Shown here: positions 913-64,000 of the stretch, one piece after another | Numbering within the stretch: position 1 is the stretch's first letter | Layout: the number at the start of each line of letters is the position of its first letter | From: Burkholderiales bacterium | GTDB taxonomy: Bacteria > Bacillota > Clostridia > Christensenellales > SZUA-584 | DNA length: 64,000 nt | NCBI GenBank assembly: GCA_050260375.1 | Contig: JBLNCA010000007.1 | Coordinates: 1,597-65,596 of the forward strand | Direction of reading: 5' to 3' | Made by a program: the position numbers and the translations under genes | Notes under the pieces: generated by a model | The model's database searches: none | What the model saw: only the letters and a program-made list of their open reading frames with translations | What the model was told of the DNA's origin: nothing

Positions 913-1541
913 CTCGGCCTCTTAAGGAACGGGTTATGGCGCAGCTCGATGAACAATGTCGTATCGGGGCCGTGGCCTGTATATACGGTATAGTCGATTT
1001 TAAGCCCGCCTATCGTTTTATGCAATGTGTCGTAATACTCCGCAGGGTCGCCGCCCGGCAGGTCGGTGCGGCCGCACGACATATAGAACAGCGAATCTCC
1101 CGAGAACATGGCGTTTTCCGCTATATAGCACACGCTGCCGCCCGAATGACCCGGAGTATGCAGCACATAAACGTCCATATCCGCAGCGTCAAGCGTCTCT
1201 CCGCCCTTAAGCATGACATCCGCCTCGCAGGGCTGTACGCGCATGCCCGCCATGAGAGCCAGGCTGTCCCGCGAGCTTTTAAGCATATGCGCGTCGCGCT
1301 CGTGTATGCACACCTTAGCGCCCGTGGCGCGCCGCAACTCCGCCGCCGCGCCTATATGGTCGAAATGTCCGTGCGTCAGCAGTATATGCGTTACGTCCTC
1401 TATGCCGTTTTCTTCAAGCCTGGAAAGTATCAGCGCTTCGTCTCCGCCCGGATCGACTACGAAAGCCCTATCCGAACCTTCTTTATATGCTATATACGCG
1501 TTGGCTTCAAGTGCTCCCACCGTAATCTTTATAACTTTCAT
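909..1541 (-). CDS. MBL-fold metallo-hydrolase (hydroxyacylglutathione hydrolase-like)
   Basis: 210-aa ORF. HxHxDH metal motif in THILLTHGHFDHIG, later HTPGHSGG. SD GGAGAAAG lies before the ATG. Confidence 0.85.
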   Translation of the reverse strand: MKVIKITVGALEANAYIAYKEGSDRAFVVDPGGDEALILSRLEENGIEDVTHILLTHGHFDHIGAAAELRRATGAKVCIHERDAHMLKSSRDSLALMAGMRVQPCEADVMLKGGETLDAADMDVYVLHTPGHSGGSVCYIAENAMFSGDSLFYMSCGRTDLPGGDPAEYYDTLHKTIGGLKIDYTVYTGHGPDTTLFIELRHNPFLKRPR

Positions 1542-4259: not shown

Positions 4260-6590
4260 CTACCCTAAAAACCCTTTGAAGCCGCAAAAGCAAGCGCTTT
4301 GCATCAAGTCCTTTTTCGGCCTGCCTTTTATTGCATGTATTCTACCACTTTTATCAGTCTCAATCAACTCAAGCTCACGCAGCACCCTTTGCATGAACGC
4401 AAATTTCTCGTGAGCCACGCCCAAGCGCTGCTCCGCCTCGCAAGGCTCCACAGGTCCGCCTGACAGCGCTTCGAAAGCTTTAAGCATCTCTTTCCTCGGC
4501 GCGAAATAACGCCGTGCCTCATCGCGATAGAGCGCAAGCATCTTGCCGTCAAAAAACGAGCCCGCGCCTGCCCCGGCGCGCAGCGTGCGCTGGAACCCTG
4601 CGGGCGCCGACACGGCTACGCAGTTGCAGGCAGTATACGCCTTTGCGTCATAAAGAAAGAGTTCTCCGCTCCGCAGCCCTTCATCCACTGCTTTTATGTT
4701 CAAAAGCCTTTTAAACGCGGGCGCGGTGGGCGCTTCTACGCACAGCCCGAACCTGCTCTTTTTCTGCTCGCTTGCCAACAAAGCGGCAAACTGCTCTTCG
4801 CTCATGCCTTCGGGCATGCCGCATTTACCTATATGCGTAATCTCGTCGAGAAAGTTCTGTATCATTTCCCGCCTGTTTGCGGCGAGGAAGCCCGCTGCCA
4901 GCGCCTCGTCATATTTTACTGCTATTTCGCGCACTATAAGCTGGGGAGCGCCGTTATATTCGTTTATGTCCGCCTCGCAGAGAAAATCGCACGACTGCGA
5001 TATGAATGAATGCGAATCCTTATAGAAGAAATTGACGGCTTCTATAGAGTGCTTTGCCTGCCTCATGCGGAACTTAAGATGCGGCTTTCTTCCGTTGCCC
5101 ACAAACTTTGAATCCGCTATATCCGCGGATACAGCTATCACAGGCTTTTCGTTGCATTGCCCGAACGGCTCGAGCCGCTCGAGGTCTCTTACAAACTCCG
5201 GCGTTATATCACCTACGTTCAAACGCAGGTCGTATGTTCTTTTCCGCTCGAACACGCTCTCGTCGTAATGCGTGTTTATATATTCGCACACGTCGCGCCT
5301 TAAGCCTTCAAGCACGCCGGACGCTATCGTAAGCCCCGCGGCCTGCGCGTGTCCCCCGAACTTTTCGTACTTTTCCGCAAACGCGCCCAGCACCTCAAAC
5401 ATGTTAATGCCTTCAATGCTTCTTGCCGAGCCCACAAGGCTGCCGCCGTTGCCTCCGAAAAGCACGCAAGGCCGCGTGTACTTCTCGGCTATCTTTGCCG
5501 CCGCGATGCCAATTACGCCCGCGTTCCACGACTCGTCCGCGAGCATTATCGCGCTGTCGTTCATATACGCGTTTGCCTGTATCATCTCTTCCGCGCTGTT
5601 TTGTATATCCTCGACTTCCTTCCTGCGGCGCTCGTTGAGCGTGCAAAGCTTCTCCGCGTTTTCCCGCAGCGCGGGCGAAAGCCGCTGCGCGCTTAGTATG
5701 TCTATCGCGAGCTCCGCCGTGTCCATGCGCCCCGCCGCGTTTATCCTCGGCCCGAGGCCGAAGCTTACGCCGAACGACGAGATCTTGGCAAGCTCTATGC
5801 CCGCGCATTCGGCTAGCGCCTCCAAGCCGGCGCAAGGCTCGCTGCGCAGCTTCTTTATGCCGAGGTGCGCTATCGCCCTGTTTTCACCCAGCAGAGGCAC
5901 GATGTCCGTAACCGTGCCTACCGCTATTAAGTCTATGTATTTCATAGCCTCCGAAAGCGACGAGAGCGCGTGTATCAGCTTAAACGCAACTCCGCAGCCC
6001 GCAAGGTAGGGGCAGGGGTAAGAGCTGTCGGGGCGCTTCGGGTTTATAATATACGGCGTGTCGGGAAGCGCGCCGCATTCGTGATGGTCCGTTATTATCA
6101 CATCCACGCCGAGGCTGCGGGCCAGCGCCGTCTCGGCTACGTTCGTTATGCCGCAGTCCACGGTGATTATAAGCGACGCGCCGCCTTGGGCTATCGCCTG
6201 TACAGCTTCAAGCGAGAGCCCGTAGCCCTCGCGGTGGCGGTTGGGCGTCATTATCGACACATCCGCTCCCCGGCTTTTAAGATACAGAAAAAGAGCGCAG
6301 CCTCCGCACGTGCCGTCCGCGTCGTAGTCGCAGAAAACCGTTATCTTTTCGTTCCTTTTAAGCGCCGTCTTTATGCGCCGGGCGCTTTTTTCCATATCGG
6401 GCAGCAGCAGCGGGTCTAAAAGCTGCTCCGGCCCGGGGTACAGAAAGCGCTTCGCTTCTGTCGCCGTAGTAACGCCCCGCTTAAAAAGCAGCCTTGCCGC
6501 AGGTTCGGAAAGCCCGGTTGCCCGCCGCAAGGCTTCCACTGCTTCGGCGTTGAATTCGGTATCGTATTTTTTCTCTACAAACTTTATCAA
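4260..6590 (-). CDS. recJ: Single-stranded-DNA-specific exonuclease RecJ
   Basis: 776 aa. DHH motifs VFCDYDADGTCG, IITVDCG and VIITDHHE; DHHA1 motif GGHAQAAG. TTG start with AAGAGG SD. Confidence 0.9.
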   Translation of the reverse strand: MIKFVEKKYDTEFNAEAVEALRRATGLSEPAARLLFKRGVTTATEAKRFLYPGPEQLLDPLLLPDMEKSARRIKTALKRNEKITVFCDYDADGTCGGCALFLYLKSRGADVSIMTPNRHREGYGLSLEAVQAIAQGGASLIITVDCGITNVAETALARSLGVDVIITDHHECGALPDTPYIINPKRPDSSYPCPYLAGCGVAFKLIHALSSLSEAMKYIDLIAVGTVTDIVPLLGENRAIAHLGIKKLRSEPCAGLEALAECAGIELAKISSFGVSFGLGPRINAAGRMDTAELAIDILSAQRLSPALRENAEKLCTLNERRRKEVEDIQNSAEEMIQANAYMNDSAIMLADESWNAGVIGIAAAKIAEKYTRPCVLFGGNGGSLVGSARSIEGINMFEVLGAFAEKYEKFGGHAQAAGLTIASGVLEGLRRDVCEYINTHYDESVFERKRTYDLRLNVGDITPEFVRDLERLEPFGQCNEKPVIAVSADIADSKFVGNGRKPHLKFRMRQAKHSIEAVNFFYKDSHSFISQSCDFLCEADINEYNGAPQLIVREIAVKYDEALAAGFLAANRREMIQNFLDEITHIGKCGMPEGMSEEQFAALLASEQKKSRFGLCVEAPTAPAFKRLLNIKAVDEGLRSGELFLYDAKAYTACNCVAVSAPAGFQRTLRAGAGAGSFFDGKMLALYRDEARRYFAPRKEMLKAFEALSGGPVEPCEAEQRLGVAHEKFAFMQRVLRELELIETDKSGRIHAIKGRPKKDLMQSACFCGFKGFLG

Positions 6591-6698
6591 AGCGACCTCT
6601 TAATACCCCTGAAAACACGTTTATACTGTTGCGTTTTCTTTATATTATAACTAAAGCCTTCCTCCCGGGAAAGGCTTCAGCTTTATTAGATAATCAAC

Positions 6699-6788
6699 TT
6701 TTATACCAGCAAGCCTCATGGCTTGCCGAGGAACCCTATTTTCACCCCCCATAAAGCTTTATGCTTTATGGGGACTCCATGTTTACGC
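6699..6788 (+). repeat. Family-1 hairpin repeat, two head-to-tail units (first degenerate) in the secF-recJ spacer
   Basis: ...CCAGCAAGCCTCATGGCTTGCCGAGGAACCCTAT / TTTCACCCCCCATAAAGCTTTATGCTTTATGGGGACTCCATGTTTAC. The secF stop (6783-6785) lies in the unit tail. Confidence 0.8.
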
Positions 6789-9257: not shown

Positions 9258-12200
9258 CTAGTCGAAAAGGCTTAGCTGGTTGCTCTTTAAAAGCCCTTTT
9301 AAGCACCCGTGTTCCTCAAGCTTTGCTATTACCGCGCTCGATATCCCCGAGCGCCTTTTCAAATCTTCCACCGAGAGGAACTCGCCCTGCTCGCGGGCGC
9401 TTACTATGCCTCTTGCCGCCGCTTCGCCCGTACCGCCGAGCGCTGTGAACGGGAGCCTTATGCCGCCGTCTTCTATTTTGCAGCGCACTGCGTCCGATTT
9501 ATACAGGTCGCACGGCAGAAAGTCTATGCCGCGTTCCATCATTTCAAGCGCAACCTCGAGTATCGTAAGCTGCGACTGTTCGAGCGCGGAGGCTCCCTTG
9601 CCCATGGCTTCTATCGCGGCTATCCTGGAGCGCACCGTCTCCGCGGATTGCAGGTAAGCGGCGTCGAGGTTATCGGCCCTTACCGAAAAGTACGTCGCGT
9701 AAAAAGCTCTCGGATAGTGCACTTTAAAGTACGCTATGCGCAGCGCCATCATTACATACGCCACAGCGTGGGCTTTGGGGAACATGTACGCAATCTTGTC
9801 GCACGATTCTATGAACCACTCGGGCATGCCCGTTTTTCGCATATCGGCACGCCATTCTTCTTTCAAGCCCTTGCCCTTGCGGACCGACTCCATTATATAG
9901 AACGCCTCCGTCGGGTCCATGCCTTTCGCGACGAGCGAGTTCATTATATCGTCGCGCGTGCATATAACCTCGCGCAGCGTAGCCTTGCCTTCTTTTATGA
10001 TGTCCTGCGCGTTGTTAAGCCACACGTCCGTGCCGTGCGAAAGGCCGCTTATGCGTATAAGCTCGCCTATCGTCGTAGGCTTGGTGTCCATCAGCATCTG
10101 GCGGACGAACTTGGTGCCGAACTCCGGTATTCCGAGGCTGCCTACCTGGCATCCCATTATCTGCTCCGGAGTTATGCCCAGCGCTTTTGTGGACGTAAAC
10201 AGCGACAATGTATCCGGGTCGGAGATAGGCACGTCTATCGGGTCTATCCCTGTAAGCTCTTTCAGCATATGCAATGCCGTCGGATCGTCGTGGCCGAGTA
10301 TGTCGAGCTTTATAAGGCGGTCGTGCAGCGAGCCGAAGTTGTAGTGCGTCGTGATAAAACCCGACTCCGAGTCGTTCGCCGGGTACTGTATCGGCGTGAA
10401 CTCGTGTATGTCCCTGCCGCGCGGCAGTATGACCATGCCGCCCGGGTGCTGTCCCGTTGTGCGCTTGGTGCCCGAAACGCCCTTCGCGAGCCGCTCGATT
10501 TCCGCCCTGCTCGCCGAAATGCCCTTTTCCTCCATATATTTCTTAACGAAACCGTAAGCGGTCTGCTCTTTTATGCTGCTTATTGTGCCCGCGCGGAACA
10601 CGCGGTCCTCTCCGAAATAATCGACTATGAATTTATGCGCATTGGTCTGGTACTCGCCCGAAAAATTGAGGTCTATATCCGGCACCTTGTCGGCGTTTAT
10701 GCCAAGGAACACGGCAAAGGGTATGTCGTAGCCGTCGCGCTTCATCGGAGTGCCGCAATCGGGGCAATCTTTGGGCGGCAGGTCGGGGCCGCACGCTACG
10801 CTGGAGTCGGTAATAAATTCGCTCTTCTTGCAGTTGGGACATACGTAATGAGGCGGCAGCGCGTTGACTTCCGTTATGCCAGCCATCGTGGCGGCGAGCG
10901 AAGAGCCTACGGAGCCCCTAGAGCCCACGAGGTATCCGTCCTGCATCGAGTGGCGCACCAACTCATACGCTATATAGTAAAGCACTCCGTAGCCGTGCTT
11001 TATAATATTGTCAAGCTCGAACTTCAGCCTGTCTTCCACTATAGCGGGCAGCGGGTCGCCGTATATCTCTTTCGCGCGCTTAAAGCACATATCCACAAGC
11101 TTTTCAGGCGCTCCGGGTATCTCGGGCATCGCGGGCTCGTCGGGCAGCAGTTTTATATTCTCGACCTGCTGGGCTATTGCGCGCGTGTTGTCTATTACAA
11201 CTTCTTTCGCCTTGGCCGCTCCAAGGTACGAAAACTCTGCGAGCATCTCGGCAGTCATGCGGAAATAGAGCGGCGCCTGATTGTCGGCGTCCGCAAACCC
11301 CTGGCCGTGCATGAGTATGCGCCTAAAGTACTCGTCCTGCGGCTCTATAAAATGTGCGTCGCATGTGGCGCACACGGGCTTTGAAAGCCGCTCGCCCAAT
11401 TCCACTATCTTGCGGGTGATGTCGCGCACGCCTTCCATGTCGCGGAACCGCCCTTCGCGCACCATAAACGCGTTGTTGCCGTCCGGCTGTATCTCGAGAT
11501 AATCGTAAAAGCCCGCTATCTGTTCCAGCTCGCCTTCGGAGGCATAGCGCAGTATTGCCTGCACGAGCTCTCCCTGCTCGCAGGCCGAGCCTACTATCAG
11601 CCCTTCCCTGTGCTTAATAAGCAGCGAGCGAGGCACGCGCGGCCGCCTGTAGAAGTGCTTCATGTGCGATTCGCTAACGAGCTTATAAAGGTTGAAAAGT
11701 CCCGTTTTATTTTTGCACAACAGTATTACGTGGAAGTTGGGCAATTCCTTTTCGTCAACGGGCTGCTGAGGCTCGGGGTTTGCGGCCTTTTCCATGCATA
11801 TCTGCATTATCTTCACGGTACACATGGCGTCGTCTAGCGCGCGGTGATGGCGCAGCGGTATGTTAAGGTCGGCGGCAAGCTTCCCCAAGCTGTAGGATTT
11901 GCGGCCGGGCAGCCAGCGGCGGAACAGCCATACCGTGTCAAGGCAGCGGTTGTCAAAGCTTATGTCGCAGTCTTTGCCGTGTTTGTATAAAAAACCCATA
12001 TCAAAAGGAGAATTATGCGCCGCAAGGTGCTTATCCCCTATATATTCCTTGAACATCGCGAGCGCTTCGGGTATTGACGGCGCGTCCGCCACCATCTCGT
12101 CGGTGATGCCCGTCATGTCGGTTATCTGGCGGCTGATATGGCAGCCGGGGTTTACGAAAGTGCTGAACGTATCGACGATTTCCCCATGGCGCAGCCTTAC

Positions 12201-27494: not shown

Positions 27495-27622
27495 TTTACA
27501 TCACCGCCTCAAATAGCCTCACGTCTTGCCGGGGACCCCGTATTTACACCCCATAAAACTCTTGCTTTATGGGGACCCCGTATTTACACCCCATAAAGCT
27601 TTTGCTTTATGGGGACCCCGTA
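27495..27622 (+). repeat. Family-1 hairpin repeat, array of three units
   Basis: A degenerate unit at 27495-27542, then two 40-bp units: 27543-27582 (TTTACACCCCATAAAACTCTTGCTTTATGGGGACCCCGTA) and 27583-27622 (TTTACACCCCATAAAGCTTTTGCTTTATGGGGACCCCGTA). Confidence 0.9.
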
Positions 27623-27664
27623 AAAAAAGCAGCGGGGCGTTTAATCACCCCACCGCAGTTTTTT
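27622..27664 (-). terminator. Intrinsic terminator after the upstream LCP paralog
   Basis: The minus RNA reads CUGCGGUGGGG-ugauuaaacg-CCCCGCUGC (9 bp including 2 GU) followed by UUUUUUU. An A-run and T-run flank it on both sides. Confidence 0.7.
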
Positions 27665-36540: not shown

Positions 36541-36607
36541 CTTACACCCCGGTGGCTTTCGTTAAAATCACCCCAAAAAGGTGAGCCTTTTTAGGGTGTT
36601 ATAAAAC
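36541..36607 (+). repeat. Family-1-like repeat (partial unit plus variant hairpin) in the hslU-nucleotidyltransferase spacer
   Basis: CTTACACCCCGG... (its tail forms the SD of the downstream gene), then CACCCCAAAAAGG-tgag-CCTTTTTAGGGTG. Confidence 0.65.
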
Positions 36608-38029: not shown

Positions 38030-38560
38030 CTATACCTCCTCAACGGTTATCACGTTGTTTGTAAACACGCATATGCTGCTCGCTATTGCCATAGCTTTTT
38101 TGACTATCTCCAGCGCGGATAAATCGGTATTCTCCTTCAGCGCCTTGGCTGCCGCGAGAGCGTAACTTCCGCCCGAGCCTATGGCCGCTATGTCGTCGTC
38201 GGGCGTTATCACCTCGCCGCTGCCCGATATTACGAGCAGTTCGTCCTTGTCCGCCGCGATAAGCATCGCTTCAAGCTTGCGCAGCACCTTGTCTCCGCGC
38301 CATTCCTGCGCCAGTTCCACCGCGGCGCGCTGCAGGCTGCCGCTGTACTGCTCGAGCTTTGCCTCGAAGCGCTCGGAAAGCGTGAACGCGTCGGCAACCG
38401 AGCCCGCAAACCCTACGACGACCTTGTCGTCAAAAAGCCGCCGCACCTTCTTTGCGTTGTGCTTCATTATAGTATTCTGGCCGAACGTGACCTGCCCGTC
38501 GCCCGCGATGGCGCACTTGCCGTCCCGCCTCACCGCTACTATCGTAGTGCCTTCCATCAT
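38030..38560 (-). CDS. hslV: ATP-dependent protease subunit HslV
   Basis: The track ORF is over-extended into repeat DNA. ATG ATG at 38560-38555 is preceded by GGAGGAAACAGAG and gives [15 protein letters not shown] (catalytic Thr N-terminus). Confidence 0.9.
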
Positions 38561-38613
38561 CTCTGTTTCCTCCAAAACATTCCCGAAACCGCGTTGATTC
38601 CGAAAACCGTTAT

Positions 38614-38689
38614 GGGGACGAGGCAAAGCCTCTCCCCTTATACACACCCCATCAAGTCTTGCGACTTGCCGGGGGCCCCGTATATATAC
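38614..38689 (+). repeat. GC hairpin plus diverged family-1 unit
   Basis: GGGGACGAGGC-aaa-GCCTCTCCCC (38614-38637), then TTATACACACCCCATCAAGTCTTGCGACTTGCCGGGGGCCCCGTATATATAC. Confidence 0.7.
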
Positions 38690-38736
38690 GCGGGAGGGAC
38701 AAACCCCTCCCTGAATGTCCTTCTTTATTATCTTAT

Positions 38737-38900
38737 ATTACCCCATCAAGCCTCACGACTTGCTGGGGACCCCGTATTTACACCCTATTAAGCCTCACGA
38801 CTTTTTGGGGACCCCGTATTTACACCCCATCAGCCTCACGGCTTGCTGGGGACCCCGTATTTACACCCCATCAAGTCTCACGACTTGCTGGGGACCCCAT
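38737..38900 (+). repeat. Family-1 hairpin repeat, array of four head-to-tail units
   Basis: Units at 38737-38776, 38777-38818, 38819-38859 and 38860-38900. Each reads (T)TTACACCCCAT(C/T)AAGYCTCACGRCTTGCTGGGGACCCCGTA. Confidence 0.9.
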
Positions 38901-40200
38901 TAAAAACCCCGTCCCGTATGCGCCTTATCTCACTAAGCGCCCTTTCGGATACGGCTAATTTTACGTCCCGCCTGCGCGCTTTAGATTCCAGCCTGCCCAA
39001 TATGCCAAAAGTAATATTCATTGGCTGGAAATCCGCTCCGCAATAGCCCGAAACGTACGCCGCAAGCGCGCCGCACGCAGTATTCCTGCTAAAATACGGC
39101 CTTTGCTTTCCCGTTATATCGCACGCCGCAAACAGCCCCGCGAGCAGCCCGGACGAGGCGCTCTCAATATACCCTTCCACGCCGGTTATCTGTCCCGCGA
39201 AGAAAAGCCCCGGGCGGCTCTTCATCTCGTAGTATTCGTTTAATACCCCCGGGCTTTTTATGTACGTGTTCCTGTGCATCACGCCGTAGCGCACGAACTC
39301 CGCGTTTTCAAGCCCCGGTATCATAGAAAACACTCTTTTCTGTTCGCCGAACTTCAAATGCGTCTGAAAGCCTACGAGGTTAAAAAGCCGGCACTCGGCG
39401 TCCTCGCGCCGCAGCTGCACCACCGCGTAAGGCTTGCTGCCGTCGGGGCACGTAATCCCAACCGGCTTCAGCGGCCCGAAGCAAAGCGTTTTAAAGCCGC
39501 GCTTCGCCATAGTCTCTATCGGCATGCAGCCCTCAAACACGTTGTCGTCCTCAAAGCCGTGCATATGCGCCGTCTCGGCGTTTATTAGCGCCTCCCAAAA
39601 AGCGCGGTACTGCTCTTCGTTCATCGGGCAGTTCAGATAGTCGCTGCCTTCGCCGTATCTTGACGCCCAGAACGCCTTGCCCATATCCACCGACTCGGCC
39701 GTCACTATCGGCGCCGCCGCGTCGAAAAACGAGAGCATGCCGTTCGTCCTGCGGGCTATGTCGTCCGCAAGCGGCCCGGAAGCAAGGGGCCCCGCCGCCA
39801 CGATAGCGATGCCTTCTTCGGGTATTTTCTCTGCCTGCTCTGTAACAACTTCTATATGCCCGTTCGAGCGCACCGCGTTTGTGACATACTCAGAAAACGC
39901 TTTCCTGTCCACAGCGAGCGCGCCGCCCGCGGGTACCTTCGTCTCGTCCGCAGCCCGCATTATCAGCGAACCAAGCTCCCTCATCTCCTGCTTTAAAAGC
40001 CCCACGGCGTTCGCAAGCCCCTCCGCACGCAGGGAGTTCGAGCACACCAGCTCCGCGAAGCCTTCCTCTCTGTGTGCGGGCGAAAACGCCAGCGGCTTTT
40101 GCTCAACGAGCGTTACATCGACGCCGAAGCGCGCGAGCTGCCAGGCGGCCTCGCAGCCCGCAAGCCCCGCGCCTATTACGACAGCGCTATTCTTCTTCAT
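38878..40200 (-). CDS. trmFO: Methylenetetrahydrofolate--tRNA-(uracil-5-)-methyltransferase TrmFO
   Basis: 440 aa. VIGAGLAGCEAAWQLA FAD motif. Conserved position after topA. The last 7 codons and the stop lie in a repeat unit. Confidence 0.9.
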   Translation of the reverse strand: MKKNSAVVIGAGLAGCEAAWQLARFGVDVTLVEQKPLAFSPAHREEGFAELVCSNSLRAEGLANAVGLLKQEMRELGSLIMRAADETKVPAGGALAVDRKAFSEYVTNAVRSNGHIEVVTEQAEKIPEEGIAIVAAGPLASGPLADDIARRTNGMLSFFDAAAPIVTAESVDMGKAFWASRYGEGSDYLNCPMNEEQYRAFWEALINAETAHMHGFEDDNVFEGCMPIETMAKRGFKTLCFGPLKPVGITCPDGSKPYAVVQLRREDAECRLFNLVGFQTHLKFGEQKRVFSMIPGLENAEFVRYGVMHRNTYIKSPGVLNEYYEMKSRPGLFFAGQITGVEGYIESASSGLLAGLFAACDITGKQRPYFSRNTACGALAAYVSGYCGADFQPMNITFGILGRLESKARRRDVKLAVSERALSEIRRIRDGVFNGVPSKS

Positions 40201-42416: not shown

Positions 42417-42456
42417 TTTACACCCCGTAAGCTTTAAGCTTTTGGGCCCCGTAAAC
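42417..42456 (+). repeat. Family-1 unit (diverged) between dprA and topA
   Basis: TTTACACCCCGTAAGCTTTAAGCTTTTGGGCCCCGTAAAC. Confidence 0.7.
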
Positions 42457-42517: not shown

Positions 42518-43657
42518 TCAGATTCCGTATTTTCCGCCGGGCAGCCGCTTTATGAGGCCGCCAAGCTCCATCAGCGTAAGCGCCGAATTTATCTCGCTTT
42601 GAGGATATTTTATGCTCAGAGCAATGCTTTCAACACTTGTATCGCCTTGCAGAAGCAAATTATATATTTGGCGCTGTAAAAAATCAAGCTGTATACATTT
42701 TTCACCCCAACAAGCCTTACGTCTTGTTGGGGACCCCATATCCGCTGCGGCGGGCGCTTTTTCGCTTCCCAGCCCGTAAAACTCTAGTATGTCTACCGCG
42801 CTGCACGCTATGCAGGCGCCCTGCTTTATCAGCATATTTGAAAGAGACGCCGTACTAAGATACGGCGGGCCGGGCACAGCGAATACGTCGCGACCCAATG
42901 CGACGGCCATAGAAGCGGTTATCGCCGTGCCGCCCTCTATTTCCGACTCTACAACCAGCGTTCCTTTTGACAGCCCCGCGATTATCCTGTTTCGCACGGG
43001 AAAATTCGCGGCAAGCGGCTGCGTTCCCGGCGGCAGTTCAGAGATTACCGCTCCGTTCTCCACTGTTTTGTAATATATATCGTCACTTTCCGGCGGATAG
43101 ATTACATCAACTCCGCAGCCGAGCACCGCTATTGTCTTTCCGCCGGCTTCGAGCGCGCCCGAATGCGCCGCCGTGTCTATGCCGCGCGCCATGCCCGAAA
43201 CAACGGCCACGCCCGCTTCCGCCAGCTCTTTTGCTATCCGGCGCGCAAGCTCAAAACCTTTTCTTGTGCACCGCCTCGTGCCCACTATGCTTATCGCGTC
43301 AAGCGGCTTTTTTGTGTCGAACACTCCGCTTAACGCTCCTTTAACGAACAACACGGGCGGCGGGAACTGCAGCCCGGCAAGCCTCTCGGGATATTCGCCC
43401 GACAGCCTCGTAACTGCGGTTATGCCTTTTGCGGCGAGCTCCGATATTATTTCGGCTACGCGCTGCTCCGAGCAGTAGGCCCTGGCGGTTTTCGCGGCGT
43501 CTGCGGAGATGCTTTCAAGCGGCTTGCCGCTTTTTACCGCATCAAAAAACGTGCCCGCGTCCCCGAATTCCTTCAATAAATAATAGAACGCCTTCGGGCC
43601 TATCACGGGCATAGACGCCATCCATATCCAGTATTTTTCCTGCTCGGTGTACGCCAA
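42518..43657 (-). CDS. dprA: DNA-processing protein DprA (Smf)
   Basis: 379 aa. Rossmann-like core (IVGTRRCT...VVSGMARGIDTAAH...VLGCGVD) and C-terminal winged-helix-like part. TTG start with GGGAGGTG SD. Contains an in-frame repeat unit (see findings). Confidence 0.85.
   Translation of the reverse strand: MAYTEQEKYWIWMASMPVIGPKAFYYLLKEFGDAGTFFDAVKSGKPLESISADAAKTARAYCSEQRVAEIISELAAKGITAVTRLSGEYPERLAGLQFPPPVLFVKGALSGVFDTKKPLDAISIVGTRRCTRKGFELARRIAKELAEAGVAVVSGMARGIDTAAHSGALEAGGKTIAVLGCGVDVIYPPESDDIYYKTVENGAVISELPPGTQPLAANFPVRNRIIAGLSKGTLVVESEIEGGTAITASMAVALGRDVFAVPGPPYLSTASLSNMLIKQGACIACSAVDILEFYGLGSEKAPAAADMGSPTRRKACWGEKCIQLDFLQRQIYNLLLQGDTSVESIALSIKYPQSEINSALTLMELGGLIKRLPGGKYGI
42698..42740 (+). 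repeat. Family-1 unit inside the dprA coding sequence
   Basis: TTTTTCACCCCAACAAGCCTTACGTCTTGTTGGGGACCCCATA, with a perfect 10-bp stem. Confidence 0.85.
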
Positions 43658-44423: not shown

Positions 44424-44465
44424 TTTACACCCCAAAAAGCCTCACGTCTTTTTGGGGACCCCGTA
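44424..44465 (+). repeat. Family-1 unit between convergent genes
   Basis: TTTACACCCCAAAAAGCCTCACGTCTTTTTGGGGACCCCGTA, with a perfect 10-bp stem. Confidence 0.9.
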
Positions 44466-44490
44466 TAAAAAACAGAGGGCAGCAGCCCTC
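44466..44490 (-). terminator. Intrinsic terminator after the YdeI-family gene
   Basis: The minus RNA reads GAGGGC-ugcu-GCCCUC followed by UGUUUUUUA. Confidence 0.6.
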
Positions 44491-44512
44491 CGCATATTAA
44501 TGCTTATCATCG

Positions 44513-49621: not shown

Positions 49622-49664
49622 TTTACGCCCCGAAAAACCGTCGAGCTTTTTGGGGGTATCGTTA
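49622..49664 (+). repeat. Family-1 unit (variant) between the GT-C and GT39 genes
   Basis: TTTACGCCCCGAAAAACCGTCGAGCTTTTTGGGGGTATCGTTA. The GT-C gene stop (49662-49664) lies in its tail. Confidence 0.7.
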
Positions 49665-54116: not shown

Positions 54117-54120
54117 GATA

Positions 54121-54163
54121 ACGGGGCCCCCGGCAAGCCGCGAGGCTTGATGGGGTGCATAAA
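54121..54163 (-). repeat. Family-1 unit, inverted copy, in the aroF leader
   Basis: The plus strand reads ACGGGGCCCCCGGCAAGCCGCGAGGCTTGATGGGGTGCATAAA, the reverse complement of the family consensus. Its end abuts the aroF SD (AAAGGAGG). Confidence 0.8.
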
Positions 54164-56057: not shown

Positions 56058-57173
56058 ATGGAAATATTGAACATAGATATTGGGCGAAACAACTACAGCG
56101 TGTATATAGAGCGCGGCTTGATCCGGGACGTTCCCGAATTTCTAAAGCTTAAGTATCCGAACAGCCGTTTCGCGGTGATAACGGACACAAACGTACGGGA
56201 TATATACGGCAATAAGCTCTCGGCGGGGCTCGATGCGGCCGGCATAAAGCACAACGTTATAGCGCTGCCTCCCGGCGAGAGTACGAAGAGCTTGAAGAAT
56301 TTTTCGCATATACAAAGCCGCCTTGCGCAGCTTGAGTATACGCGCACCGACCTGATAATCGCATTGGGCGGAGGCGTAGTTGGCGATTTGGCGGGGTTCG
56401 CGGCGTCCGCTTACCTGCGCGGCATACGCTACGTGCAGATACCTACGACGCTGCTTGCGCAGGTAGACAGCTCGGTGGGCGGCAAGACCGCAGTAAACAT
56501 TCCCGAAGGCAAAAACCTCGTGGGCGCGTTCCATCATCCCGACGCGGTATATATAGACCCGGACGTGCTGGCAACGCTCGGCGGAGAGGACTTCGCTGGC
56601 GGCATGGCCGAGGTGATAAAATACGGCTTCATAAAAGACAAGGCGATACTTGAAACTCTCGAAGAGGAGTATATAACCGCGCATTCGCCCGAGCTCGGCG
56701 CGCTCGTTAAGCGCTGTCTCGAGATAAAGCGCGATCTCGTCGAGGCGGACGAAAAGGACAGGGGCGAGCGCATGCTTCTTAACTTCGGCCATACCATAGG
56801 GCACGCTCTAGAGCGCGTATGCGCGAAAGGCGGAAGACGTATTACGCACGGGCAGGCGGTCGCGCGCGGCATGGCGTCGATAACCAAAGCGAGCGAGCGC
56901 ATGGGACAGACGAAGCTGGGCACGGCGGCGTATATCATTCACCTGCTGCACAAGTACGGGCTCCCCTGCTGTCTCGGCGGTTTCGACACGCAGCAGATAC
57001 TCGAGGGCATATTCGTTGACAAGAAAAACATAAACGGCAAGCTGAATCTCGTGCTGCTCCGCGAGCCGGGCGTATCGTTCATCCATCCGATAGACAAAAA
57101 CGGCATGGCCGAATACATTGCCCCAAAAAGCCTCCCGGCTTTTATAGGGGCTGATGTTAGGGACGGCGTATGA
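56058..57173 (+). CDS. aroB: 3-dehydroquinate synthase
   Basis: 371 aa. LGGGVVGDLAGFAA, PTTLLAQVDSSVGGKT, FGHTIGHALE. The C-terminal tail overlaps a repeat-like hairpin. Confidence 0.9.
   Translation: MEILNIDIGRNNYSVYIERGLIRDVPEFLKLKYPNSRFAVITDTNVRDIYGNKLSAGLDAAGIKHNVIALPPGESTKSLKNFSHIQSRLAQLEYTRTDLIIALGGGVVGDLAGFAASAYLRGIRYVQIPTTLLAQVDSSVGGKTAVNIPEGKNLVGAFHHPDAVYIDPDVLATLGGEDFAGGMAEVIKYGFIKDKAILETLEEEYITAHSPELGALVKRCLEIKRDLVEADEKDRGERMLLNFGHTIGHALERVCAKGGRRITHGQAVARGMASITKASERMGQTKLGTAAYIIHLLHKYGLPCCLGGFDTQQILEGIFVDKKNINGKLNLVLLREPGVSFIHPIDKNGMAEYIAPKSLPAFIGADVRDGV
57116..57150 (+). repeat. Family-1-like hairpin inside the aroB 3' end
   Basis: TACATTGCCCCAAAAAGCCTCCCGGCTTTTATAGGGG. Confidence 0.5.
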
Positions 57174-59502: not shown

Positions 59503-60623
59503 TGGGATACGACGAAGAGATAAGCGCACTGCGCTCAAAAATAGACGAGATAGACGCAAAACTTACCGCACTTTTCGAGCAGCGTATGGACGCAGTGGCC
59601 GAAGTTGCGAAAGTTAAGAGCGCCTACGGCAAAGAGATACTGGACAGCGCTCGCGAACGCGAGGTTTTAGAGCGGGCCGTCTCGCGGCTTGACAACAAGG
59701 GATACAGCGAGCAGATAAAAGCTTTTTTCCGTTCTATAATGGATATAAGCAAAATGTCGGAGGCAAGGCTGATGGCTCCCCCGCCCTCTTCCGCGCCCGC
59801 AAAGCGCGTGGGATACCTCGGCATACCGGGCTCGTTCTCGCACACCGCGGCGGAGGAAATGTACGGGCATTGCGAACTTATAAGCTACGATACGTTCGAC
59901 GCGATATTCGAGGGGCTTAAAAAGGACGAGATAAGCATTGCTATGCTTCCCGCCGAGAACACCGAAACTGGCAGCATAACTGCCGTCGTAGACCTGCTCG
60001 CTAAATACGGGTTTTATATAGTCGCGGAAAAGCTGCTCAAAGTGCGGCAGAGCCTGCTGGGCGTTAAAGGCGCAAAGCCGGGCGAGATAAAGGTCGTGTA
60101 TTCGCACTCCGAGCCGTTCGCGCAGTGCAGCGCGTTCCTCGCGGCGCGGCCCGGTATAGAGACTCGCCCCTCGTTAAGCACTGCGCAGGCCGCAAGCACG
60201 GTGGCGCAAACAGGCGACGCAAGCGTTGCGTGCATCGCGTCCTCGAAAGCCGCGCAAATCTATGGCCTTGAAGTGCTGGCAGAGAACATACAGAACAGCG
60301 ACGGCAACTGCACGCGGTTCGTGGCGGTAGCAAAGCAGCCCTGCAAAAGCGAAGAATGCGACAAGACAAGCATAGTGTTCATGGTGGAGCACAGGCCGGG
60401 CTCGCTGTGCGAGATATTAAGCATACTGCAGAAAGGCGGAGTCAACATACTGAAGCTCGAGTCCCGCCCGATAAAGGATAAGCCGTTCGAGTACATGTTT
60501 CACCTCGACTTTGAGGGCAGCATACACGACAAAGGCATAGCGGAGGCGATAGACAACTTAAAGAAAGCCGCCGCGGATTATATTTACCTCGGCAGCTACA
60601 AGCGCGAGACGAGGATGCCATGA
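59499..60623 (+). CDS. pheA: Bifunctional chorismate mutase / prephenate dehydratase
   Basis: The ATG at 59499 overlaps the aroC stop (ATGA). CM helix EEISALRSKIDEIDAKLTALFEQRMD, PDT region VGYLGIPGSFSH, C-terminal ACT region (TSIVFMVEHRPGSL). The upstream extension in the track overlaps aroC. Confidence 0.9.
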   Translation: MMGYDEEISALRSKIDEIDAKLTALFEQRMDAVAEVAKVKSAYGKEILDSAREREVLERAVSRLDNKGYSEQIKAFFRSIMDISKMSEARLMAPPPSSAPAKRVGYLGIPGSFSHTAAEEMYGHCELISYDTFDAIFEGLKKDEISIAMLPAENTETGSITAVVDLLAKYGFYIVAEKLLKVRQSLLGVKGAKPGEIKVVYSHSEPFAQCSAFLAARPGIETRPSLSTAQAASTVAQTGDASVACIASSKAAQIYGLEVLAENIQNSDGNCTRFVAVAKQPCKSEECDKTSIVFMVEHRPGSLCEILSILQKGGVNILKLESRPIKDKPFEYMFHLDFEGSIHDKGIAEAIDNLKKAAADYIYLGSYKRETRMP

Positions 60624-61951
60624 CCACCCCAAAAGCCTCACGGCATTCCCCAAATAGCTATATGAAAGCGGGATTGCTGGGCGAAAAGCTGTCGCACAGC
60701 CTGTCGCCCGCGATACATCAAAAGTTCTGGCGGCTGTCGGGCATCAAAGGAAGCTACGAGCTTTTTGAGTCGCGGCGCGATGGTATTGAGGCGCTTCTAG
60801 GCAGGCTGGAGCGTGAAGGCTATATCGGCATTAACGTAACGATACCTTACAAGACGGAGGTAATGAAGTACCTTAATGAACTGTCCCCCGAAGCCGAGGC
60901 GATAGGCTCGGTAAACACGGTAATGTTCCAAGGCGGCAGGCGGCTGGGGTACAACACCGACTACTTCGGTTTAAAGACGCTGCTCGATTCGTCGGATATC
61001 GCGATAGCAGGAAGAAGCGTCGTAATACTCGGCACGGGCGGCGCGGCGCGGTGCGCGTTGAAGCTTACACGGGATATGGGAGCGCAGAGCGTAATTGCGG
61101 TAAGCCGCTCGCCGGAGAACGCAGGAGTACCAGGAGCGGTAAGCTACGAAGCGCTCGATAAGCTCGACGGCATAGACGTGCTTATAAACACTACGCCCGT
61201 TGGCATGTCGCCCCATACGGACGGCTGCCCCGTTAGCGAGAGCGTGATAGGAAAGTGCGGCAGCGTCGTGGATCTCGTATACAACCCGGCTGAAACGAAG
61301 CTGCTTTCCAACGCGCAGGCTTTTGGCATTAAAGCAGTAAACGGCTTAGGTATGCTGTGCGCACAAGCCGTCAAGGCGCAGGAGATATGGAACGGACAGA
61401 TATACGGAAGCGATATATACGACAGCGTTTACAAGTACATGCTCCGCGTCGTTTATAAGCCGAACATAGTGCTGATAGGCATGCCGGGCAGCGGTAAAAC
61501 GACGGTGGGCAGGCTGCTTGCAGACTGGCTCAACATGGAGTTTATCGACACGGACGCTATGGTGGAAAAGGAGCACGGCCCAATACCCGATATATTCAAT
61601 GCCGAGGGCGAAGAAGCGTTCAGGGCATACGAGCGCGAAGCGGCAAAGAAGGCCGCAGCGGCACACGGCGCCGTGATATCCACAGGCGGGGGCATAATAC
61701 TTGACGGGCGCAATATGTACGCGCTTAAGGAAAAAGGCACCGTAGTGTTTCTCGACCGGCCGCTTGAGGCGCTGCTTAAAGATACTGATACGTCGGGGCG
61801 GCCGCTGCTCGCGGGGGGCAAAGACGCCATCGCCGAGCTTTACAGGCAAAGGCACGGGCTGTATAAAAAGTACGCCGATATAATAACCGACAACTCATAC
61901 GGCGCGGAGGGCTGCGCTCGGGAGATAATTGAAGCTTTGGAGGACATGTGA
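60620..61951 (+). CDS. aroE: Fused shikimate dehydrogenase / shikimate kinase
   Basis: 443 aa. AroE part (LGEKLSHSLSPAIH, ILGTGGAAR) followed by an AroK part (IVLIGMPGSGKTTVGR...DTD). The start is either the ATG at 60620 (ATGA overlap with pheA) or the ATG at 60662. Confidence 0.85.
   Translation: MTTPKASRHSPNSYMKAGLLGEKLSHSLSPAIHQKFWRLSGIKGSYELFESRRDGIEALLGRLEREGYIGINVTIPYKTEVMKYLNELSPEAEAIGSVNTVMFQGGRRLGYNTDYFGLKTLLDSSDIAIAGRSVVILGTGGAARCALKLTRDMGAQSVIAVSRSPENAGVPGAVSYEALDKLDGIDVLINTTPVGMSPHTDGCPVSESVIGKCGSVVDLVYNPAETKLLSNAQAFGIKAVNGLGMLCAQAVKAQEIWNGQIYGSDIYDSVYKYMLRVVYKPNIVLIGMPGSGKTTVGRLLADWLNMEFIDTDAMVEKEHGPIPDIFNAEGEEAFRAYEREAAKKAAAAHGAVISTGGGIILDGRNMYALKEKGTVVFLDRPLEALLKDTDTSGRPLLAGGKDAIAELYRQRHGLYKKYADIITDNSYGAEGCAREIIEALEDM
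60623..60651 (+). repeat. Degenerate family-1-like segment at the pheA/aroE junction
   Basis: ACCACCCCAAAAGCCTCACGGCATTCCCC shares the CACCCCAAAAGCCTCACG left half. The right arm is decayed. Confidence 0.4.
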
Positions 61952-63143: not shown

Positions 63144-63487
63144 GTAAAGCGCCTCCAATCATTATATAAAGTAACATTATGTGCCTATTGTAGCATATCA
63201 GTTAACTTTTTCCAATAGATAAGAAATTTCCGTGTGACCGCAGCGGCAGAGGAATACGCAAGGAAAGTATATGCTTCCAGAATTGTGCGCGGAAAAATAT
63301 GTGGTTACATAAGCGGATTACCGGGTGGGCAATCTCCATAAAAATGATGTGATTTCAGAAAAGTTATACTTCCATTAACGGAAATTTTATGAGTTCTGCC
63401 ACAAGCGTAGCAGCGAAGAATAATGCTCCCCCGGCTTTCATATGAAGACTAAGCCCTTTAATACTGGCATCGCCTCAAGGCGTACGT

Positions 63488-63770
63488 TATAGGCTTCACC
63501 TTTACACACCCCTCATTCGCTTTGCGCCACCTTCCTCTGTTCATAATAGTCGTCTGCCGTCACTATCGTTCGGCATTCTCCTTTATTCACAGAGCCTCCG
63601 GCTCGCTTCATCGCTCACTGAGCGCGCTTGCCTTCGGCTCCCCCGAGGGAAGGCTTACTTTCATCAATTTTACGCGCTCTTATAGGCTTCTCCTTTACCC
63701 ACCCCAACGAACTTTGTTCGCCGGGGGTCCCTGAAGGAGAAGCTGTCGCCGATAGGCGACTGATGAGGTG
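63488..63770 (+). repeat. Composite repeat region (family 2 halves, nested family-1-like unit, direct repeats)
   Basis: Direct repeat TATAGGCTTC[A/T]CCTTTAC[A/C]CACCCC at 63488 and 63680. Nested hairpin GCTTCTCCTT (63686-63695)/AAGGAGAAGC (63734-63743) around CCCCAACGAAC-ttt-GTTCGCCGGGG. GTCGCC-gata-GGCGAC (63745-63760), then TGATGAGGTG. Confidence 0.7.
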
Positions 63771-63847
63771 TTAATAAAATCAACGAATACCCCTCAGAGC
63801 TTAGGCTCTTTAGAGCCCTCGGTACTATCGGGGGACATATGCAATAA

Positions 63848-63870
63848 GAGGGCGGCTAAAAACCGCCCCC
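63848..63870 (-). terminator. Possible terminator after the partial gene at the window end
   Basis: The minus RNA reads GGGCGG-uuuuuag-CCGCCC followed by UCUUAUU. It lies 20 nt after the TAA TAG stops. Confidence 0.4.
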
Positions 63871-63890
63871 TGCACCCTGCAACAATTCTA

Positions 63891-64000
63891 TTACCCCTTG
63901 TATACGCTGATATTGCCCGAATCGACGGACAGCTTTACAAGCTCTCCCCCGCCGTTGCAGCTGCCTTTTAAGCTGCCGCGGTCTATGCCGCCGCTCACCA
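63891..64000 (-). CDS. 3' end of a gene whose start is outside the window (Gly/Ser-rich beta-repeat-like tail)
   Basis: My minus-strand translation reads ...VSGGIDRGSLKGSCNGGGELVKLSVDSGNISVYKG then TAA TAG, followed by a GC hairpin. Only 36 codons are visible, so no family call. Confidence 0.4.
   Translation of the reverse strand, partial: VSGGIDRGSLKGSCNGGGELVKLSVDSGNISVYKG

Follow-up and report, generated by a model that had tools for sequence, protein, structure and literature searches.

A polar family of 42-nt hairpin repeats in a Bacillota genome that may be a mobile element of the REP type

The 64-kb stretch of DNA analyzed here (the window; positions 1,597 to 65,596 of contig JBLNCA010000007.1, assembly GCA_050260375.1, deposited as Burkholderiales bacterium and placed by GTDB in the Bacillota) carries, at very high density, a family of 42-nt hairpin repeats, many of which are joined into head-to-tail arrays. 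A first-pass annotation made from the sequence alone had noticed these repeats, had compared them with repetitive extragenic palindromes (REPs) and bacterial interspersed mosaic elements (BIMEs), and had offered a role in mRNA 3'-end protection or processing and a mobilized REP-like element as candidate explanations. Our analysis confirms the existence of the family, and the mobilized element is the best fit among these candidates, since relatives differ in the presence and the copy number of the units at orthologous sites. We therefore favor, with modest confidence, a reading of the units as a mobile, non-autonomous hairpin element of the REP type whose expansion in this Bacillota clade is recent.

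The unit has the 42-nt consensus TTTACA-CCCC-A-arm-(TCAC)-arm'-T-GGGG-ACCCCGTA; the constant clamp and linker and the variable arms described previously are borne out by the unit alignment. A covariance model (R1) with a 12-bp helix was built from an alignment of 17 units (A2), and a search of the window with the filters switched off recovered 17 units scoring 33–61 bits each, where about none is expected by chance. All but one of them lie on the plus strand (start positions 6698, 6741, 27501, 27543, 27583, 38641, 38735, 38777, 38819, 38860, 42417, 42699, 44424, 49622, 57115, and 63696); the single minus-strand unit starts at 54120. With an extra weak match at 36563–36602 (minus strand, 21 bits), the number of copies in 64 kb rises to 18, of which 14 are intergenic. 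This census of 17 strong units and one weak unit at 12 loci matches the roughly 20 units at 12 loci that had been counted by eye. Tandem Repeats Finder (TRF) reported a 42-nt array at 38740–38898 (3.8 copies, 88% matches) and a 40-nt array at 27531–27622. The motif GGGGACCCCGTA, with at most one mismatch, occurs 10 times in the window compared with 0.17 expected occurrences, and the pattern CACCCCA-N12-30-TGGGG occurs six times compared with 0.02 expected.

Turnover of the units between close relatives

Syntenic loci were found through a homologue search with TrmFO, whose amino acid sequence identity is 93% in locus L136, 90% in L137, 82% in L138, and 71% in L139. Over the same gene order (syntenic 21 kb), there are about 10 units in the window and about 10 in L136, three in L137, one in L138, and none in L139, whose spacers are only 20–58 nt long. 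In L136, the trmFO 3' end reads GTTTTTAAT/ATATGATAATAAAG (the slash marks the junction here and below) and there is no array, while in the window four units are positioned exactly at this junction (…GTTTTTAAT/GGGGTCCCC…GGGGTAAT/ATAAGATAATAAAG…). The insertion rewrote the C-terminus of TrmFO, which ends with …GVFNGVPSKS-stop in the window (38878–38901) and with …GVFNI-stop in L136; the unit at 38860–38901 overlaps the final eight codons of trmFO, a minus-strand gene. At a second site in the trmFO-hslV spacer, located after a conserved GC hairpin, there is one unit in the window and there are five in L136, four of them near-identical and of the window subtype and one of another subtype.

Comparable differences are found at other sites. 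The window has a 42-nt in-frame insert in dprA, where it extends the linker that joins the Rossmann domain to the C-terminal winged helix; L136 retains a decayed version, and DprA of L137 and L138 has no such insert. The unit in the dprA-topA spacer (window 42417) is present in L136 and L137 and absent in L138, and the unit at 49622 has an orthologous copy at 860–901 of L136. Downstream of hslU, both L137 and L138 carry a unit in canonical orientation after the hslU terminator, instead of a decayed inverted copy. All four Logan short-read contigs that contain the exact TrmFO of the window (L007–L010) stop at most about 30 nt past the gene; they break at the trmFO array, as is expected at a high-copy repeat.

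Collectively, these differences in presence and copy number at orthologous sites argue for a mobile, locally amplifying element and not for a conserved regulatory site. Judged from the compared sequences, the turnover of the units among close relatives is much too rapid for regulatory sites under conservation.

Copies in the window, their polarity and their insertion context

The individual copies and the features next to them are given below. Gene names were taken from NCBIfam matches (recJ, secF, two LCP genes, hslU, hslV, trmFO, topA, dprA, rplS, the gene for 3-deoxy-D-arabino-heptulosonate 7-phosphate (DAHP) synthase, aroB, and aroA).

6698–6781, plus strand: two units (6698–6739, degenerate; 6741–6781), 2 nt past the secF stop codon and upstream of recJ
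27501–27622, plus strand: three tandem units (that at 27501 degenerate) between two LCP-family genes on the minus strand; found by TRF and the covariance model
27629–27656, minus strand: canonical intrinsic terminator belonging to the upstream LCP gene; the T-tract merges directly into the first unit (…GCTGCTTTTTT/TACGGGGTCCCC)
36563–36602, minus strand: degenerate, tail-less, inverted unit downstream of hslU; 21 bits; the same decayed copy is present in L136
38614–38637: GC hairpin GGGGACGAGGCAAAGCCTCTCCCC, not a unit; conserved in L136
38641–38682, plus strand: lone diverged unit with a GGGGGCCCC tail at the second insertion site of the trmFO-hslV spacer; 54 bits
38692–38711: GC hairpin GGGAGGGACAAACCCCTCCC, not a unit; conserved in L136, there directly downstream of trmFO
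38735–38776, 38777–38818, 38819–38859, and 38860–38901, plus strand: four head-to-tail units; found by TRF and the covariance model, 52–58 bits each
42417–42453, plus strand: shortened unit between dprA and topA, a short distance upstream of the topA ribosome-binding site; covariance model
42699–42740, plus strand: in-frame unit of 14 codons (MGSPTRRKACWGEK) in the interdomain linker of dprA (minus strand); covariance model
44424–44465, plus strand: single unit, 42/42 identical to a unit of locus L002 from a metagenome-assembled genome (MAG); covariance model
44472–44493, minus strand: canonical intrinsic terminator, its T-tract abutting the 44424 unit (…CTCTGTTTTTTA/TACGGGG)
49622–49663, plus strand: unit filling an intercistronic spacer, overlapping the stop codon of the upstream gene (49662–49664) and located upstream of a PMT-family gene
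54120–54161, minus strand: inverted unit in the aro operon leader, separated by 15 nt from the start codon (ATG) of the plus-strand DAHP synthase gene that follows
57115–57156, plus strand: degenerate, tail-less unit encoding the C-terminal tail of AroB (plus strand); covariance model
60623–60651, plus strand: remnant of a left half-unit, CACCCCAAAAGCCTCACGGC, where a plus-strand open reading frame (ORF) of the aro operon starts; missed by the covariance model
63696–63734, plus strand: unit enclosed by an outer inverted repeat (GCTTCTCCTT…AAGGAGAAGC) in a region without ORFs; covariance model

The make-up of the trmFO-hslV spacer (38558–38877), i.e., four tandem units, one diverged unit, and two GC hairpins, is as first claimed. 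A stray unit head (CCTTACACCCCGGTGGCTTTCG; 36541–36562), likewise conserved in L136, lies beside the inverted decayed unit downstream of hslU. At 57115–57173, the last approximately 20 residues of AroB are encoded by the decayed unit, and there is an overlap with the start of aroA. The region surrounding the unit at 63696 (63160–64000) consists of about 800 nt without a convincing ORF in any frame and contains a second partial head (CCTTTACACACCCC) near position 63470.

At 15 of the 16 well-preserved insertion sites in the window, the MAG loci, and L137/L138, the complement of the unit lies on the gene-sense strand. Nine of the conforming sites are in the window (6.7k, 27.5k, both sites of the 38.6–38.9k spacer, 42.4k, 42.7k in dprA, 44.4k, 49.6k, and 54.1k, where both unit and gene are flipped). 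The same polarity was found in the MAG loci L001, L002, and L003 and twice in L006, with the flanking genes checked by Pfam, and in the hslU-downstream unit of L137 and L138. The lone exception among the 16 is the degenerate copy in aroB (57115); the unit at 63696 and that of L004 were left undecided in this tally. At least three conforming sites are flipped along with locally plus-strand genes (window 54120; L006; L001), and within one 8-kb stretch of L006 the units at 1183–1308 (plus strand) accompany minus-strand genes, while that at 6551 (minus strand) accompanies plus-strand genes. Within single contigs, orientation changes together with the direction of the local genes, so that the polarity follows the genes and not the replication arm. 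GC skew was discarded as a means to separate replication from transcription polarity, as the skew of the window merely tracks the coding strand.

A single polarity relative to transcription had been proposed in the first-pass annotation, and the well-preserved sites agree with it, as does the copy in the aro operon leader, which is indeed inverted (54120, minus strand) and has the same polarity relative to transcription as the others. The rule is not absolute, however, because the copies in the plus-strand aroB gene (57115) and in the next gene of the aro operon (60623) have plus orientation; the weak tail-less copies at 36563 and 60623, like the degenerate copy at 57115, break it. The stricter statement that every copy among minus-strand genes has plus orientation fails at 36563, where the tail-less copy downstream of hslU is inverted.

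When read in gene sense, the arrays start just past A/T-rich sequence. Two arrays of the window begin at the T-tract of a canonical terminator (27656–27629 and 44493–44472), and arrays also follow the hslU terminator in L137 and L138 and terminator-like hairpins in L006. The last 8 nt upstream of the arrays contain on average 3.2 T residues, compared with 2.2 in the intergenic background. The unit end TAAAT recreates an insertion-like site, a feature that, judged from about 20 junctions, would explain head-to-tail growth. Strand-specific insertion beside T-rich gene-sense sequence, often a terminator T-tract, is another possible cause of the polarity.

The 5' leader of a DAHP synthase gene holds units in two species (window 54120–54161; L006 1183–1308), and the L006 array follows a promoter-like TATAAT sequence and a terminator-like leader hairpin. 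Orthology of this shared site was considered and rejected: the two enzymes are of different types (23% identical), and the coincidence is probably fortuitous.

Hairpin structure, wider distribution and competing explanations

The structure of the unit was assessed with 29 units from the window and three MAGs (set A3). In this set, 83.7% of the stem cells are paired, compared with 77.6 ± 1.1% in shuffled controls and no more than 54% after sliding of the 3' partner. Alignment columns 13/28 hold CG in 14 units and AU in 11, and columns 12/29 hold AU in nine, UA in four, and GC in one. The previous description of arms that vary yet stay complementary is supported by these double changes at two pairs, but the overall pairing is incomplete and the commonest subfamily (ATCAAG/CTTGCT) carries a T.C mismatch at 12/29. 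Since the stem covariation is concentrated in two subfamily-defining pairs, it may be inherited and not repeatedly compensated.

The unit is asymmetric between its strands. Folded as RNA, the complement of the consensus given above is the more stable one in 23 of the 29 units, with a mean of −15.5 versus −13.5 kcal/mol; the non-Watson-Crick stem cells are A.C (21) and G.T (6), and A.C becomes a G.U or G.T wobble on the complement strand. RNAalifold found only eight pairs on either strand, and its covariation term was close to nil; for the unit strand, it favored an alternative GGG/CCC mini-hairpin within the GGGGACCCC palindrome, and on the complement strand it recovered the clamp and the inner helix. 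The complement strand has the layout 5'-TACGGGGT-CCCCA…TGGGG-TGTAAAT-3' and runs TACGGGGTCCCC…GGGGTGTAAAT. That the units are not canonical terminators, as had been argued, holds up: the hairpin in RNA sense is followed by GUGUAAAU and by no U-tract, and the terminator scan called only separate terminators upstream of two arrays.

The strongest competitor of the mobile element, which we nevertheless regard as unlikely, views the units as cis-acting RNA elements under selection. Hairpins in 3'-untranslated regions (3'-UTRs) and between cistrons would block exonucleases or direct RNase processing and would set the relative expression of cistrons (trmFO vs. hslVU, secF vs. recJ), and a single functional RNA strand would produce the polarity. 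This explanation accommodates a polarity that tracks gene direction even in the flipped cases, the more stable folding of the mRNA-sense strand with its G.U-compatible mismatches, the covariation at two stem positions, and the placement of units 0–2 nt from stop codons (secF, the gene with its stop at 49662, trmFO) or 8–15 nt upstream of ribosome-binding sites (aroF, topA). Furthermore, Escherichia coli REPs are reported in a preprint to be 3'-UTR regulators (bioRxiv 10.64898/2026.03.23.713779). However, the sites are not conserved: most or all are missing in the 71–90% relatives, and one copy stands against five between the 93% relatives. Units also occur inside coding sequences (dprA, trmFO, aroB), several lie behind a canonical terminator where little read-through RNA is to be expected, the unpaired flanks (ACCCCGTA, TTTACA) are strongly conserved and not the helix alone, and RNAalifold recovers little of the helix and hardly any covariation. 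As a statement about RNA function, the earlier notion of selection on a hairpin goes beyond these observations. Inserted units would be co-transcribed as stable hairpins (about −15 kcal/mol) of 3'-UTRs, intercistronic regions, or 5' leaders, and would in this way probably have local effects on mRNA decay and translation. Such an effect is likely as a by-product, since transcription passes through stable hairpins located at stop codons and ribosome-binding sites; the turnover of the elements argues against it being the reason for which they exist.

Among the GTDB representative genomes, the linker GGGGACCCCGTATTTACACCCC is present in only three, all of them MAGs named "Bacillota bacterium." No flank similarity or orthology was detected between these MAG loci and the window, and units are identical or near-identical across the MAGs despite their unrelated flanks. 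A metagenome scan with the pattern CACCCCA-N16-24-GGGGACCCCGTA yielded at least 120 loci (L011–L130). In nearly every match listed, the inner arms are complementary although the pattern did not demand this, and same-contig copies not forced by the search pattern keep GGGGACCCC(G). Among the matches listed, the CCCC-hairpin-GGGGACCCCG architecture is found in contigs of 39–74% GC from peat, soil, and sediment metagenomes, and arrays are frequent and head-to-tail, with a period of 37–43 nt and lineage-specific stems. A scan of viral contigs for units gave no match, and the genes neighboring the 120 unit-bearing loci listed share no family beyond duplicate contigs. Examples of these arrays, and of a different dense hairpin family (CCCCCTCTCC/CCCCCTTCCC…GGGAAGGGGG) that co-occurs with units in one group of contigs of about 45–51% GC, are as follows.

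L083 3258–3445; L036 660–788; L119 2629–2787; L063 13822–13947; also L068: metagenomic head-to-tail arrays
L135 2860–2970 and 3570–3720: 3 + 4 tandem units upstream of a gene for a REP-associated tyrosine transposase (RAYT) 68% identical to that of L088
L095 408–439, 530–556, 3066–3092, 3247–3271, 5180–5205, 7863–7889, and 8054–8078; also L061, L094, L052, and L029: the other hairpin family

Units accompany RAYT genes in the Acidobacteriota-like contigs L088, L134, and L135. In L088, a Y1_Tnp gene (Pfam E = 3e-9) lies 41 nt from a unit and has units on either side; homologues of its RAYT in Edaphobacter, Granulicella, and Acidobacteriaceae carry the name RAYT or transposase. In L134, whose RAYT is 88% identical to that of L088, a unit lies within the loop of the gene-flanking REP GGGTGCCCCACAT…ATGTGGG. 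Such a REP within a REP, with the unit in the loop of a GGGTGCCCCACATACGCG…CAAGCTTATGTGGG hairpin, is seen at 900–1025 and 1545–1605 of L088 and at 3790–4050 of L134. The link to RAYT enzymes is circumstantial and only suggestive, because the RAYT has another flanking hairpin and the RAYT loci L131–L133 are without units. At the latter (10001–10468 in each), RAYT is a single, syntenic gene downstream of ffh and near an xerC/xerD-like pair, and it is flanked by GGGTGCCCCACATCTC…GAGATGTGGG hairpins; from this arrangement, the behavior of the Acidobacteriaceae RAYT looks like vertical inheritance.

Two further Y1 proteins were considered as partners and rejected. The IS200-type tnpA gene of L003 (3880–4293, minus strand; MAG OH_PFB_25; Pfam Y1_Tnp E = 5e-37) is located 1.3 kb from a unit pair and apparently lacks a proper start codon; its end structures are unrelated to the unit. 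The Y1 protein of L082 is flanked by other hairpins; in this locus (reverse complement, 1–70 and 226–268), a unit is positioned about 150 nt upstream of the 5' end of the 16S rRNA gene.

If the units are indeed a mobile REP-type element, its active form would be the complement strand, 5'-TA-CGGGGT-[CCCCA-arm-loop-arm-TGGGG]-TGTAAAT-3', in which a G-rich foot beside an imperfect hairpin would reproduce the anatomy of REPs and IS200/IS605 ends. The units would probably be mobilized in trans by a single-strand HUH/Y1 transposase of the RAYT/TnpA(REP) kind. Insertion would be strand-specific and occur beside A/T-rich gene-sense sequence, very often the T-tract of an intrinsic terminator, and the terminal TAAAT of each unit would recreate the target, so that further units could be added head-to-tail. 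Arrays may be built both by insertion of other subtypes and by local tandem duplication. The polarity relative to transcription would then be an outcome of where and how units insert, possibly reinforced by selection against gene-damaging copies. As a more tentative extension of this model, the CGGGGT/ACCCCG-tagged hairpin might constitute a third cross-phylum superfamily beside the GTAG and CGTC repeats, moved strand-specifically by an HUH-type enzyme that targets gene-sense terminator T-tracts and thereby generates polar head-to-tail arrays.

Several observations speak against a mobile element of this kind. The hairpin that directly flanks the RAYT gene of Acidobacteriaceae is another one (GGGTGCCCCACATCTC…), and there are no units within 20 kb of the RAYT loci L131–L133. 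In about 240 kb of DNA from the lineage, no Y1 transposase was found save the ordinary IS200 tnpA of L003. The T-tract preference derives from about 20 junctions, and A/T richness is in any case a property of intergenic DNA. Relative to crude gene calls, the units of the wider metagenome set have mixed orientations. Finally, replication slippage alone could give tandem growth.

This last point is taken further by an explanation that we consider improbable, in which the arrays arise solely by local tandem duplication or slippage and recombination, no transposition machinery is involved, and the singletons are ancient relics. The near-identity of four of the five L136 units, the scoring of the arrays by TRF as ordinary 40–42-nt tandem repeats, and the lack of a transposase in the DNA searched are all in keeping with it. 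It does not account for a new array at a site that is empty in the 93% relative, for singletons at eight separate loci and the dprA insertion, for neighboring units of different subtypes, for identical units in unrelated contexts of other species, or for the constant junction sequence. Very improbable in our estimation are DNA binding sites for a chromosomal protein (nucleoid-associated, topoisomerase/gyrase, or recombinase) that recognizes the GGGGACCCC palindrome or a cruciform, the hairpin being incidental: GGGGACCCC forms a 9-bp palindrome that varies least of all parts of the unit in each of the lineages examined, and REP/BIMEs of E. coli bind gyrase, IHF, and Pol I (background in PMC6006769 and PMC8266576), but a double-strand site needs neither a fixed gene orientation nor a strand-asymmetric hairpin, no gene family co-occurs near the units among the 120 loci listed, and nothing links the units to chromosome landmarks.

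Comparison with known systems

The statement that the family is not a recognized one stands. Rfam gave no match in the window at the gathering score, and the spacer yielded only noise of at most 18 bits at E-values up to 10. The supplements of two REP catalogues (PMC3733652, PMC6006769) hold no GGGGACCCC or GGGTCCC entry, a full-text literature search for the motif strings returned no bacterial paper, and nothing was found in the literature on the MAG accessions or on Firmicutes REP-like repeats.

How REPs spread and come to be placed is still debated. To our knowledge, REP systems are essentially uncharted in the Bacillota, and we know of no description of REPs organized in head-to-tail arrays with fixed polarity to transcription. 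If our interpretation is confirmed, it would extend REP-type elements to the Bacillota, with a new tag common with the Acidobacteriota, and would make insertion junctions, array growth, and polarity directly accessible in a natural setting, through the comparison of close relatives. Short-read assemblies break at the units, which also rewrite protein termini (TrmFO, AroB) and the DprA linker; as stable hairpins at housekeeping operon junctions they are relevant to the annotation and expression models of uncultured gut and environmental Bacillota.

The units are unlike a CRISPR array, as they abut without spacers, and unlike miniature inverted-repeat transposable elements or IS200/IS605 derivatives (PATE), as they are single 42-nt hairpins without terminal inverted repeats. 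With Rickettsia palindromic elements and CGTC-tagged repeats they share in-frame insertion that leaves coding genes open (the dprA linker and the C-termini of TrmFO and AroB); unlike these, they lack a CGTC tag, are much shorter, and are mostly intergenic.

Processing of IS200/IS605 elements and REPs is single-stranded and strand-specific, with a guide tetranucleotide 5' of the hairpin and a stem mismatch that is sometimes needed (PMC8266576). The units resemble IS200/IS605 ends in their strand specificity, subterminal hairpin, and adjacent guide-like motif, and in an insertion 3' of a short A/T-rich target without obvious duplication, the element end resembling the target. They differ in having one hairpin per 42-nt unit, no distinct left and right ends, and no transposase gene inside; the mechanistic parallel is one that we infer.

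As far as REPs and BIMEs are concerned, the first-pass comparison holds in part: the hairpin resembles REPs, but the arrays are not BIME-like, since they never form inverted pairs, and the GTAG tag is absent. The units are short imperfect palindromes (20–65-nt class) present in many mostly extragenic copies. With the GTAG-tagged proteobacterial REP/BIMEs they have in common a short imperfect hairpin (about 30 nt) whose stem adjoins a conserved foot that stays unpaired, a very high copy number, a location mainly downstream of genes and between genes of the same direction, subfamilies specific to lineages, a conserved mismatch in the stem, and occasional copies inside genes. Unlike them, they possess a second conserved flank (TGTAAAT), have an orientation fixed relative to genes, reside in a Bacillota host, and have no cognate RAYT identified in the roughly 240 kb of lineage DNA searched. 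Two more differences add to the points that count against a REP-type element. The foot is (TA)CGGGGT (an ACCCCG tail on the other strand) and not GT[AG]G, the GTA of the unit being placed at the far end of the other strand with ACCCC between GTA and the stem; moreover, all arrays in the window, the MAGs, L136, and the metagenome loci are head-to-tail, which sets them apart from BIMEs and REPINs.

The published catalogues define GTAG and CGTC tags (PMC3733652; PMC6006769), and for the acidobacterial RAYT subclasses 2.1/2.2 they give REPs in which a GGTG or GGGTG foot precedes a CCCCA…TGGGG hairpin (PMC6006769 Table S1). The complement strand of the unit (CGGGGT + CCCCA…TGGGG) comes very near to this layout; its tag is absent from the tables of both catalogues. 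The units differ from this last group in their foot (GGGGT vs. GGTG(C)), and the RAYT genes examined are directly flanked by the GGGTGCCCCACAT type. They are like these REPs ("TIRYT" of PMC3733652) in their CCCCA opening, TGGGG closing, and G-rich 5' foot; one Acidobacterium capsulatum REP shares the arm TCAAGCC with the units, and unit-type copies are present beside RAYT genes of this kind in L088, L134, and L135.

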